The notes under the pieces: generated by a model | The model's database searches: none | What the model saw: the letters and a program-made list of their open reading frames with translations, nothing else | Told to the model about the DNA's origin: nothing | In this document: one piece after another, positions 13,303-57,185 of the stretch | How the letters are laid out: each line of letters begins with the position of its first letter | Position numbering within the stretch: position 1 is the first letter of the stretch | Source: Candidatus Poribacteria bacterium | Lineage (GTDB): Bacteria > Poribacteria > WGA-4E > WGA-3G | Reading direction: 5' to 3' | Assembly: GCA_965198235.1 (NCBI GenBank) | Contig: OZ240248.1 | Coordinates: 4,736,001 to 4,800,000, forward strand | DNA: 64,000 bases | Made by a program: the position numbers and the translations under genes

Positions 13303-13386
13303 TAAGGTATAAGCATAATGCATTTCAGCATGCCCGTGAAACTTCGTAAAACGGCGTGCGTAATTAACAACTAAATAGATTACCCT

Positions 13387-13687
13387 AAAAAGCGTTGAAG
13401 GGGAGGAGTAAGTCGTCCGGACTTGCAAGAGATGGGGATTCATAGGCTGAAAGGTCTCCTCAAGTTCCCACGACTGAAGGTCGCCCTGGAGTTGCTAATC
13501 TGAACAGTCTGTAGCAATGTCTCAGTAGGATTAGTCGGTGTGATGCCCGTTAACGCATCCCAAAGAGTGCTCTTTCTCGTTGTAGGTTCAATGCCTCGAA
13601 AATGAGAAAGGGAATTGGAGTGGTACCACGGTAAGGTCACTGTAAATGCCCTTCTCGTCTCCAAAGTTGGAACGAGAAGGTTTTTTT
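13387..13687 (+). ncRNA. T-box riboswitch (probable Leu specifier)
   Basis: Stem I elements GAGUAAG, AGAGA and GGCUGAAAG; probable CUG specifier at 13486-13488; T-box AAUUGGAGUGGUACCACGG at 13613-13631; terminator follows. Confidence 0.9.
13650..13687 (+). terminator. T-box attenuator terminator
   Basis: CCTTCTCGT...ACGAGAAGG stem followed by T7. Confidence 0.88.
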
Positions 13688-20590: not shown

Positions 20591-20699
20591 TCATTAACCT
20601 CAATTGTAAAATGTAATCTGTTTCTATGAGTTCGGTAAATAACGTGAGTTCGGTAAAAAATTTCCACTGGTAGTGCAAACTGTTAGTTTCCTTGTTTTC

Positions 20700-21215
20700 G
20701 TCCAAGTACATAGGGAGAGCATTGATCCATCAAAGACTATCGATCCGAGTCCCTATCTGCTTTCAAGAGGTTTTAAAAGGTGTCAAATGCCAACACCCTA
20801 CCTTTAAAACCCTTATGCTAACAGGGACCGACTTTTTTTCAACGTCCCTCCGGTGGGCAAAAGCGATAAAAATCAGGGTGTGGGTCTCCTTTTTCTCTGA
20901 AAGGTCTGTAGGAATTCCTGGCTACCTTTTAAGGTCGCATTTTCTCAATGCGGGTGTGGGTTTGTATGCGATTAGAGATTGTATGGTTTCCTACATTCAT
21001 TGGACAAAAGCAAGGTAGTTTGCGCAGAACCCGACACAAACTATGGTAGATATCAGAATTAATTGGACACTCTCAAACAGACCTGAAGGCCACTTAGCAG
21101 CCTCGAGACAGACACAAACTACACGCCAAAAGTCCCCTGACATGTACAGTGTCAGTTTTGATACCGGCATCCTACGTCTCGACGGAGTCTTTAGCATACA
21201 CAAAGTGATACACAG
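20700..21215 (-). ncRNA. Candidate large structured non-coding RNA or leader
   Basis: No credible ORF; nested long-range complementarities, duplicated motifs and an upstream extended -10 (see findings). Confidence 0.55.
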
Positions 21216-21221
21216 CAATAT

Positions 21222-21254
21222 ATTATACCATTTTAGTTACGTTTATGGTAGAAT
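21222..21254. promoter_or_regulatory. Back-to-back extended -10 promoters
   Basis: TGGTATAAT on minus (21230-21222) and TGGTAGAAT on plus (21246-21254). Confidence 0.6.
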
Positions 21255-21285
21255 GCAATCAGAATTCAAACGAGGTGGAACAACA

Positions 21286-21722
21286 TTCAGATACTTCACG
21301 CTAAAGCGTGGAGATTGTAGAATATCGCCAGCCAAGGCGGGATCCTGCAACGTGAGAATCTGAATAGAGTCATATATCGTGGTATCTGGGTGTGGCAGCC
21401 CGAACGACGTGTGTTAAAAGGTAATATTCTGTGGTGGGATATTGCTCAAGGATGCTCCCTAAGTCCCACTCCTCTCGGATACCGCGATCTCGATGGGGCA
21501 ACATACAACCCGAAAGGGATTTACCTGCTTTCTCAAAGGCACCGGGTCAGGTCAAGTAAGTGAGTAGTGCGAGCCCCACCCAACGAAGCAGCCCACCAGA
21601 GAGGATCGCCCACGTGTCTGTGGGGAAAAAACAACACGCCCCACATTTGGGGAATTTTAAAACAAAGGAGGCAGGCTTTCCCCTTCATGCTAAAGCATGG
21701 AGTCCCCAGCTTGAAGAATTTA
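21286..21722 (+). mobile_element. Non-autonomous IS200/IS605-type element carrying an omegaRNA (HEARO-like) scaffold, without an IscB/IsrB ORF
   Basis: Matching subterminal hairpins CTTCACGC-TAAA-GCGTGGAG and CTTCATGC-TAAA-GCATGGAG; internal GCCAGCC, GGATGCTCCCTAAGTCC and ACCCGAAAGGG motifs. Confidence 0.7.
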
Positions 21723-22577
21723 ATGGCAACCAAGAGCGTTGTTTACAAAACCGATAAAATCATGCCGACATGGGCACAACTCGCTGAGATGGGACGCGAT
21801 CTCAGGTTTTACCCAAGCCTTACCAAGCATCCGAAAGTACTGACCCAGGAACAGGTAGCTCACTTCAACAACGTCGGCTATATCAAAGGTATCCCGATTT
21901 TCGATGACGCTGAAATCGGTGAACACCGTCAATACTTTGATGCCCTGTTAGCAAGCGTCATGGCAGAAGGCGGAAGCAGTTATTCAATTATCTCCGCGCA
22001 CATGAAATACGGAAAGGTCTATGACCTTCTCACACACCCAAGGATTGTCGCTTGTGTGAAGGACCTGATCGGCGAGGACGTTATCGGTTGGGGTGCGCAC
22101 TACTTCTGCAAAATGCCGCACGACTCGAAAACTGTCGGCTGGCATCAAGATGCCGGTTACTGGCCCCTCTCCCCTTCCAAGACGGTTACCGTCTGGCTCG
22201 CGATTGACGATGCTGCCATTAAAAATGGTGCGATGCGGTTTATCGCAGGTTCACATCACCTTGGGCATTTAACCGCTCGGCACAGCGAACCCAATGACAA
22301 TAGCGTCCTGGGTCAAATCGTTGAAAACGCAGAGCAGCACGGCAAACCGGTGGATGTTGAACTCAAAGCGGGTGAAATTTCTATCCACACGGACCTACTC
22401 TTGCATGGGTCGAACGCCAATCCTTCGCCGAGGCGACGCTGCGGTCTCACCTTACGCTACTGCACCTCCGATGTCCAAGCGTCCTATCGCTGGGATAGGG
22501 AAGGTGTTGTCGTGAGTGGAAAAGATAATGATGGCCACTGGGACAACCCACCACGTCCGGCTAGTGATGGCAATTAG
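21723..22577 (+). CDS. Phytanoyl-CoA dioxygenase (PhyH) family Fe(II)/2OG oxygenase
   Basis: WHQD, VWLAIDDA..NGAMRFIAGSH, LLHGS..N.S.RRR. Confidence 0.9.
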   Translation: MATKSVVYKTDKIMPTWAQLAEMGRDLRFYPSLTKHPKVLTQEQVAHFNNVGYIKGIPIFDDAEIGEHRQYFDALLASVMAEGGSSYSIISAHMKYGKVYDLLTHPRIVACVKDLIGEDVIGWGAHYFCKMPHDSKTVGWHQDAGYWPLSPSKTVTVWLAIDDAAIKNGAMRFIAGSHHLGHLTARHSEPNDNSVLGQIVENAEQHGKPVDVELKAGEISIHTDLLLHGSNANPSPRRRCGLTLRYCTSDVQASYRWDREGVVVSGKDNDGHWDNPPRPASDGN

Positions 22578-22701
22578 GGATATATTTCTGCGATGCTACG
22601 GGATACATTGTTATTAAAATGATACCACATTTGGTGAGAACAGTCAAAAAGGATCTATCCCATCAAATGTGGCAGTTTCCGAACCGCGGCTTCTCCTTAT
22701 T

Positions 22702-56771: not shown

Positions 56772-57185
56772 TTAGACACCTTTTTGGTTCTCAATATACT
56801 GCTTTAGAACTTCAAGGGTAACATTTCCTGCACTCGCTACAAACTTTGAACGCGTCCACAGACAAGGTAAACGACGCTTAAGTATTGGAAACTCATTGCG
56901 TAGTATTTTTGCTGTGTAACCTTTGATTTTTCCAATCACACTTGTAACTGAAATGTCGGGGGGAATACTCGCAAGCAAATGAATGTGATCAGGCATACTT
57001 TCAACTTCTCTGACAACATAGGGATATGCCTCTTGTTGTTCAAGAATTAATGCTTTGAGTCTTGCTTGGATTTCTGGTGATAGAACAGAACGACGATACT
57101 TCGTGCACCAAATCATGTGATACTCACAAGCATATAGACTTGTTTCTGTGGAAATATATTTGTGGTCATTGTTAGTAATATTCAT
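56772..57185 (-). CDS. tnpA: IS200 family Y1 (HUH) transposase
   Basis: YHMIWCTKYRR, DHIH, YIENQ. Confidence 0.94.
   Translation of the reverse strand: MNITNNDHKYISTETSLYACEYHMIWCTKYRRSVLSPEIQARLKALILEQQEAYPYVVREVESMPDHIHLLASIPPDISVTSVIGKIKGYTAKILRNEFPILKRRLPCLWTRSKFVASAGNVTLEVLKQYIENQKGV

Follow-up and report, generated by a model that had tools for sequence, protein, structure and literature searches.

Candidatus Poribacteria are sponge symbionts, and the DNA considered here belongs to the genome of one of them (assembly GCA_965198235.1), which amounts to 5.17 Mb in two contigs. The window, that is, the whole stretch of 64,000 nucleotides (nt) that was analysed, corresponds to positions 4736001-4800000 of contig OZ240248.1 (C1), and positions without the prefix C1 are counted from its first letter. 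At 21286..21722 of the plus strand it holds a 437-nt element of the IS200/IS605 superfamily (ISC/IsrB type) that has no open reading frame (ORF) for a nuclease, and directly behind it, at 21723..22577 (+), lies an intact gene for a PhyH-family dioxygenase of 284 amino acids (aa; Pfam PF05721, E 1.2e-26). Upstream of the element are found a putative -10 box of the PhyH gene with a TG extension, TGGTAGAAT (21246..21254, +), recognised by consensus match only, and the native PhyH 5' leader (21261..21285, +), which, going by the literature on IscB/IsrB, is the predicted guide segment of an omegaRNA and contains the Shine-Dalgarno (SD) sequence GAGGTGG at 21272-21278, 7 nt before the junction. On the other side, the PhyH start codon and the first base of codon 2 form ATGG (21723..21726, +), assigned as target and target-adjacent motif (TAM) from the consensus N|ATGR at the right ends of the family. 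As judged from its sequence, the segment is an IsrB-type omegaRNA gene with both transposon ends and without a nuclease, resembling the palindrome-associated transposable elements (PATEs) and belonging to the ISC group of IS200/IS605.

The borders of the element are given by empty sites. Forty related genomes were queried with 20600-22600, yielding 12 loci, one of which was the window's own; in all 11 others, orthologous loci of same-genus genomes (L019-L029, anchored by BLAST), the left flank joins the PhyH ATG directly and reads ...cagaatt...AGGTGGARCRACA|ATG(T/G)CAA..., with nothing between flank and ATG. The segment 21286-21722 is thus a 437-nt insertion located exactly between the SD and the start codon of PhyH. 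A one-base ambiguity ('a') at the border is settled in favour of 21286-21722 by (T/G)TCAG, the conserved beginning of elements of this family. No target-site duplication is found, the flanks being joined cleanly in the empty sites of PhyH and of a second locus, uppS, where a 235-nt mini-element is absent in 13/13 relatives, which read ...AGGATnnnnnn|ATGAA. The empty PhyH alleles carry ATG(T/G) at the target position 21723, their coding sequences begin at the same ATG as the window gene, and both a TGnTA(A/G)(A/G)AT box about 35 nt upstream of the ATG and the SD are conserved in them at the same places. A preliminary description, made from the letters of the window, had proposed a segment of about 437 bp bounded by twin CTAAAG hairpins, whose removal would join a promoter and a correctly spaced SD to a PhyH start at 21723. 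Its length proved to be exactly 437 nt, the predicted junction is the one present in the 11 empty loci, and the promoter box, the SD and the start codon all hold.

Both ends of the element carry a subterminal palindrome on the same strand and lack terminal inverted repeats, as is characteristic of IS200/IS605. The two palindromes, CTTCACGCTAAAGCGTGGAG (21294-21313) and CTTCATGCTAAAGCATGGAG (21683-21702), are 20 nt long, have a CTAAAG loop, stand in direct orientation and differ by a single compensatory C-G/T-A stem pair. Between and around them, the element is organised as a series of structured parts, all on the plus strand. The left-end hairpin (21294..21313) shows compensatory changes in 22 aligned ORF-less copies (columns 29-49 of the alignment) and is part of the omegaRNA scaffold (21286..21528), which was delimited by a covariance model match, by alignment to the regions upstream of six IsrB genes and by covarying stems. 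An extra hairpin in the scaffold, at about 21420-21447, is absent from the IsrB-linked copies of the same genome. The scaffold is followed by a structured 3' domain of 138 nt (21528..21665) with invariant blocks and with compensatory pairs at columns 310:385, 323:372, 317:376 and 336:358, which is common to the 22 ORF-less elements and missing from the IsrB-encoding copies; no Rfam family matches it, either in 21000-21900 at E<=10 or in ten sibling elements. The right end consists of an SD-like AAGGAGG (21665..21671), unpaired in the predicted fold, and a two-tier hairpin directly 3' of it (21672..21713), predicted to comprise an outer stem (21672-21677/21708-21713) and an inner stem (21683-21690/21695-21702), with compensatory changes in both tiers (columns 477-482/553-558 and 488-493/542-547, respectively). 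Across the 22 copies, 51 of the 90 predicted pairs show a compensatory change.

Only ORFs of 42-66 aa occur within the element, and a tblastn search with the IsrB of the related copy A (described below) finds no IsrB at C1:4757246-4757730, in agreement with the preliminary description, which had seen no PLMP-containing ORF. As an IscB/IsrB nuclease ORF (PLMP, RuvC) is missing, the window copy is classed as a non-autonomous, ORF-less derivative. Simple deletion derivatives exist as well, for example at a trpB-like gene, but the ORF-less lineage of the window element is not a fresh deletion product, since it has a conserved and covarying 138-nt domain of its own.

The omegaRNA was identified with a model built for the purpose, because the Rfam HEARO family (RF02033) gave no match in the window, neither at its gathering score in the whole window nor at E<=10 in 21000-21900. 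The covariance model R1 was made from 40 regions that directly precede IsrB genes in the genomes of other Poribacteria, with the window element excluded, and it matches the window once, at 21268-21532 (132.3 bits, E 1.5e-40). HEARO itself is detected in seven of ten sibling elements, at the right place and on the right strand, but with 22.4-29.5 bits, where the gathering score is 83. Of the HEARO/omegaRNA-like motifs that had been reported for the segment, the omegaRNA part therefore stands, owing to the R1 match, whereas the HEARO part holds only weakly, the Rfam family being without a match here and below its threshold in the siblings.

Many pieces related to the element are scattered over the genome, and ORF-less siblings are found at other loci in 14 further same-genus genomes. 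In six full-length copies (A-F) the same 5' sequence is followed directly by the coding sequence of a protein of about 340-355 aa. This family protein has an N-terminal ..LMP motif, is recognised by Pfam RRXRR (3.7e-32) and matches DtIsrB (8DMB; 6.7e-37), so a cognate IsrB with the same ends, which the preliminary description had called for, is present in the genome. Copy A (C1:733578-734594, minus) has both ends as in the window element, and the IsrB ORFs of copies B-F are intact. The alignments of ATGG-type and ATGA-type IsrBs to DtIsrB end before the TAM-reading residues R323 and Q326.

A candidate for the transposase that moves these ends lies in the window itself. The genome contains six Y1_Tnp genes, one of which, T3 (56784..57137, minus; PF01797, 5.8e-36), is the Y1 TnpA of an IS605-type TnpA-TnpB element. 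In copies T1-T3 the hairpin of the left end has a CTTTAG loop, the reverse complement of CTAAAG, and in T2 and T3 the hairpin sequence matches the hairpins of sibling omegaRNA elements; that of T3, CCCAATCCTTTAGGTTTGGG, is their reverse complement, and its end reads CAAACCTTCC... after TTAT. The left-end start CAAA(A/C)CTTC after TTAT mirrors ...GAAGATTTTG|ATGA on the IsrB strand. Such an opposite-strand arrangement of ISC and IS605 partners is a published pattern (Kapitonov et al., 2016; PMC4810608), and a Y1 TnpA acting in trans is accordingly the candidate mobiliser suggested by these matching ends. The frame of T3 is open over 155 aa and is followed by a TnpB-like ORF, and a near-identical copy is found at C1:4381488-4381841.

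The placement of the window element at a start codon is shared by much of its family. The right ends of this genome number 38 (32 found with an nhmmer model and six placed by hand), of which 25 are followed by ATGR (20 ATGA and 5 ATGG) and the other 13 mostly by ATAA, giving the target consensus N|ATGR or N|ATAA. In 17 of the 25 ATGR-type cases the right end adjoins the first ATG of a coding ORF (70 aa or more, coding score above zero). For comparison, of the 81,618 ATGR sites of the genome, 3.4% are no more than 60 nt away from the first start codon of a called gene (binomial P 8e-20), and among the sites that do not break a called gene 21% lie at starts (P 7e-7). ORF-less elements of same-genus genomes are at start codons in 15 of 21 cases (13/20 when one shared insertion is merged and the same coding-score cut is applied). 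For IsrB-encoding copies of other Poribacteria, a scan of the best 80 of 334 relatives, all Poribacteria, in which right ends were placed at 50 of the 80 loci, gives 27/41 assessable copies at start codons, or 26/39 after merging two pairs with identical flanks. The target and TAM of the family is ATGR, and about two thirds of the ATG-type copies stand at true start codons. Hence, the bias toward ATG that the preliminary description had predicted for other copies is borne out in all three sets. Its further idea, that an ATG-type TAM would direct insertions to start codons, is correct as to the bias and insufficient as to the cause: a further filter is needed, because the TAM alone predicts just 3.4% at gene starts.

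The genes concerned are genuine and begin at the ATG in question. Leaving aside the PhyH gene of the window, 15 of the 16 other start-adjacent ORFs have Pfam domains that start near the N-terminus. Most left flanks of start-codon copies have an SD-like motif 5-9 nt from the junction, a motif that the flanks of the other copies lack. The host genes encode, among others, a rhodanese, a DHDPS-family enzyme, a DegT aminotransferase, an enolase-superfamily enzyme, a MATE pump, a TrpB-like PALP enzyme, UppS and PheT. In rpsR, which encodes ribosomal S18 (Pfam domain), the ATG lies 2 nt beyond an ATAT-type end. The genes pheT, uppS, rpsR and the trpB-like gene are single-copy, and at pheT a solo right end is found in 3 of the 14 genomes examined.

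Transcription of the locus was followed in the contigs of four sponge metatranscriptome runs from one study, which are evidence of presence and linkage and cannot show the ends of RNAs. A contig matching 21298-21493/21512 without mismatch occurs in all four runs, and in three of them contigs bridge the right end into PhyH (21612-22600, 21568-21769 and 21625-21907). No contig covers 21185-21296, with the left junction and the guide, and almost none covers 21527-21583, gaps that are uninformative about expression; the 31-mer starting at 21298 is also present in copy A, so that an assembly would be interrupted at this point. The contigs have depths of 1541.5, 25, 56.1 and 28.5 for the scaffold and about 34, 8-22, 8-17 and 6-32 for PhyH, values that cannot rank the parts of the gene, and the scaffold depths are a hint of a stable small RNA. 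A further contig (926 nt, run X4) comes from another locus or strain: its right end is near-identical, aligning with 21664-21706, and is followed by ...GAATTTG|ATGGCTACTGAATAC, again abutting an ATG.

The explanation that we consider best, and in which we have good confidence as a whole, joins these observations as follows. A Y1 TnpA acting in trans would have placed the element into N|ATGG, whose ATG is the PhyH start codon. A transcript starting from the host -10 box would then carry the old 5' untranslated region (UTR) with its SD as its first ~25 nt, that is, as the guide, and this RNA would direct an IsrB from another locus of the genome to nick empty alleles beside ATGG. The geometry fits such a use, with the flank first, then the scaffold, and the TAM on the far side. 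PhyH would remain translatable, because folding of the terminal hairpin would bring the element's own AGGAG to a distance of 9-11 nt from the AUG. As for the start-codon habit, it is most likely the product of a retention filter and not of active targeting. The guide of IsrB/IscB lies outside the element and must therefore be transcribed from the host, in practice from a host promoter; only those copies would be kept that stand in short, sense-transcribed leaders, break no ORF and produce a usable guide RNA. Copies of this kind could survive excision by TnpA through homing, and the start codon would be by far the commonest ATGR in such leaders.

Several points weigh against this explanation. 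Copy A, the closest IsrB with the same ends, has a TGA where five relatives have a conserved Trp. Copies C (C1:2947369-2948379, minus) and E (C1:4679181-4680191, plus) have intact ORFs and omegaRNA regions, but their right-end hairpin is deleted (copy C reads AGGAA-AGCCTGAAGAAGCTG|ATG), and they have probably lost their mobility, so that one may ask whether they have been domesticated. Four of the 25 ATGR-type right ends are weak nhmmer matches (E 0.06-0.12), and if only matches with E<0.01 and the manually placed ends are counted, 14 of 21 remain at start codons; moreover, the gene starts used for the background come from a crude home-made caller based on ORFs and codon usage. The RNA contigs derive from a single study, DNA may occur in RNA libraries, and contig depth cannot rank parts of a gene. 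Finally, we infer both the inclusion of the guide in the RNA and the binding of this RNA by IsrB.

Some of these points would also suit a dead remnant that neither moves nor guides and whose RNA is a by-product of read-through into PhyH. The same-ended IsrB of copy A is broken, copies C and E are without right ends, no autonomous partner is adjacent, and the last base of the window element is A where the family consensus has G. However, ORF-less siblings stand at different loci in the 14 further genomes, and compensatory changes keep the structure along the whole RNA, its 3' domain included, which together argue for recent movement and for selection on the RNA. In addition, intact IsrB ORFs (copies B-F) and six TnpA genes are available in the genome, and the RNA-library contigs match the scaffold exactly. 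We therefore regard an inert relic as unlikely.

The right end of the element deserves separate attention, as it may be a replacement ribosome-binding site (RBS) for the host gene. The AGGAG(G) at 21665-21671 lies directly 5' of the two-tier hairpin, the 3' foot of whose stem is 9-11 nt from the ATG, and SD and AUG are both unpaired in the fold. Of 83 distinct ATG-type ends, 61 have GGAG/GAGG at the corresponding position, as compared with 7 of 19 ends of the ATA type (Fisher P 0.006), a contrast that is overstated, as the sequences are related and come partly from different element classes. The AGGAG may also be conserved for other reasons: in some copies it codes for the terminal Arg residues of IsrB, and it could be part of a TnpA site. 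Nevertheless, a role as RBS fits the fact that single-copy essential genes tolerate the right end and that solo right ends persist there.

From this it is a short step to a domesticated leader, in which the element, or its right end together with the 3' domain, would now serve the host as a cis-regulatory 5' UTR. Solo right ends persist before single-copy essential genes (pheT in 3/14 genomes examined, and rpsR), the conserved structured 3' domain has no known role, and the contigs show the right end within the PhyH transcript. On the other hand, the host genes have no functional theme in common, the insertions are lineage-specific and not kept at one locus, and the same ends are found on IsrB-encoding mobile copies. 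Domestication is thus an improbable account of the window element.

The surroundings of pheT contain some further traces. In L171 and L173, two genomes of the same genus, ...CAAAGGTTTTGATAA|ATGAAC before pheT resembles a right-end tail plus an ATAA target and suggests repeated strikes. Upstream of pheT in the genome of the window (C1:2986514-2986700, minus), a fragment ATGAAACGTGCCTGTTTTACAATTGTCGTACTCG... stands just upstream of the solo right end. It resembles the first codons of an FGE-sulfatase gene at C1:755858, which lies beside a partial right end, and may be a trace of recombination between copies.

If the start-codon habit were due to active targeting, the transposase or an RNA-guided step would have to recognise SD, spacer and ATG together at integration. 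The very strong bias would be accounted for in this way, as would the SD-like motifs that most left flanks have at 5-9 nt from the junction and the apparently repeated hits at pheT, before which two relatives have ...AAAGGTTTTGATAA|ATG, like a right-end tail. Yet copies away from start codons have no SD-like left flanks, so the SD accompanies the start codon rather than the element, and the known target recognition of TnpA covers 4-5 nt (PMC4810608). A passive model also gives a similar figure: among sense-strand ATGR sites at 1,959 high-confidence starts or just upstream of them, the start codon makes up 75% of the sites within 30 nt and 61% of those within 60 nt. The observed two thirds match these values, and a passive filter is therefore the simplest account, leaving active targeting distinctly improbable. 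As to an IStron-like element whose RNA splices out of the mRNA and restores the spacing of SD and AUG, the position in a 5' UTR and the large structured RNA would suit it, but no group I or II intron family is found in Rfam (E<=10 in 21000-21900; E<=1 in ten siblings) and no contig of the four RNA runs joins across 21286-21722, although contigs drop rare forms, so that this reading is set aside as extremely improbable.

Retention in short leaders, the preferred reading, can be extended to a bolder one, namely that the IsrB/omegaRNA transposons of Poribacteria are specialised start-codon squatters. In this extended form the start codon would serve as TAM, the omegaRNA would obtain its promoter and its guide from the promoter and 5' UTR of the host gene, and the right end would act as a portable RBS, in which the terminal hairpin keeps the SD close to the AUG. 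Eventually, the right end would become the RBS of the gene itself, which would explain why solo right ends persist at essential genes such as pheT and rpsR, and the extra RNA domain of the ORF-less lineage may set the guide RNA apart from the mRNA that follows it. We put the idea forward tentatively, at slightly less than even chances.

Elements of the ISC/IS605B type insert at N|ATGA, as exemplified by ISC1-1_MA of Microcystis aeruginosa (Kapitonov et al., 2016; PMC4810608). The elements described here resemble them in the absence of terminal inverted repeats and target duplication, in the subterminal hairpins and the 5'-GT/TT start, in the insertion directly upstream of ATGA-type tetranucleotides, in being non-autonomous and in sharing their ends with IS605 TnpA/TnpB elements on the opposite strand. 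They differ in that about two thirds of the insertions fall between SD and AUG and in that the window copy is without a nuclease gene; the wording "start codon" has no occurrence in the main text of that paper.

For IsrB, TAMs of the types NTGA, NTG and NTGG are reported, and ATGA is cleaved in vitro (Hirano et al., 2022; PMC9581776). In DtIsrB of Desulfovirgula thermocuniculi (8DMB), the guide lies 5' of a scaffold of about 260 nt, whose terminal hairpin holds the SD of isrB (PMC9581776). The Poribacteria family, which matches it with 6.7e-37, likewise has PLMP, a split RuvC and no HNH, a guide 5' of the scaffold, a terminal hairpin with an SD and a TAM of the NTGA/NTG(G) type. By sequence alone, its IsrB-linked scaffolds are shorter (about 207 nt), whereas the ORF-less scaffold adds a hairpin and the 138-nt 3' domain. 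With Rfam HEARO (RF02033), the likeness is that of an RNA upstream of IscB-family genes, while the siblings reach 22.4-29.5 of the 83 bits required and the window element none.

PATEs that bear an omegaRNA were described by Meers et al. (bioRxiv 10.1101/2023.03.14.532601), who also proposed that IscB relies for its guides on transcription entering the element from outside, in line with an orientation bias, and who report TTCAT as the TAM of IscB (ATGAA on the IscB strand). PATEs and the window element are alike in having both ends, no protein gene and an omegaRNA for use in trans. The accessible text of Meers et al. gives the orientation with respect to the upstream gene, and not a placement at start codons or an RBS on the transposon end.

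Split ribosome-binding sites that are bridged by a hairpin are known from phage T4 gene 38, in which a distant SD is brought near the AUG by a stem-loop; here, such an arrangement is predicted on the end of a transposon. IscB/IsrB elements are also the ancestors of Cas9. What is already known comprises the element type, the N|ATGR target, omegaRNA-only derivatives and the dependence on outside transcription. In the full-text literature searched (main texts, subscription journals excluded), no paper was found that links IscB/IsrB or IS605 insertions to start codons, nor one that describes a systematic placement between SD and AUG, an SD-bearing right end or the extra RNA domain.

The placement suggests how transposons can borrow host promoters without killing the host gene. 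How a guide is transcribed at low cost to the host is a question that these elements make directly testable, and of which Meers et al., in the text accessible, raise the orientation bias only. With a start codon as target motif, the surviving copies come to lie in promoter-proximal leaders and the whole 5' UTR becomes the guide, while the host appears to receive a new ribosome-binding site from the transposon end in return. The elements rewire translation signals of housekeeping genes, and in these genomes many genes will be given wrong 5' UTRs and starts by automatic annotation. The family is also a natural source of compact guide-RNA genes whose TAMs are ATGR, and of a new conserved RNA domain.

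Some minor observations concern promoters and other leaders of the window. The host -10 region ATGGTAGAAT (21245-21254) is echoed by ATTGTAGAAT in the left end of the element (21314-21323), which makes a promoter-like pair with TTCACG. A promoter scan proposed a promoter inside the left end (21295-21323), which was not adopted, as its start would fall within the stretch covered by RNA contigs (21298 onward), and a scan for promoters and terminators found no sigma-70-like site in 21528-21665. Elsewhere in the window, a T-box leader (Rfam RF00230) is located at 13386-13665 (+), with 102.8 bits against a gathering score of 93.

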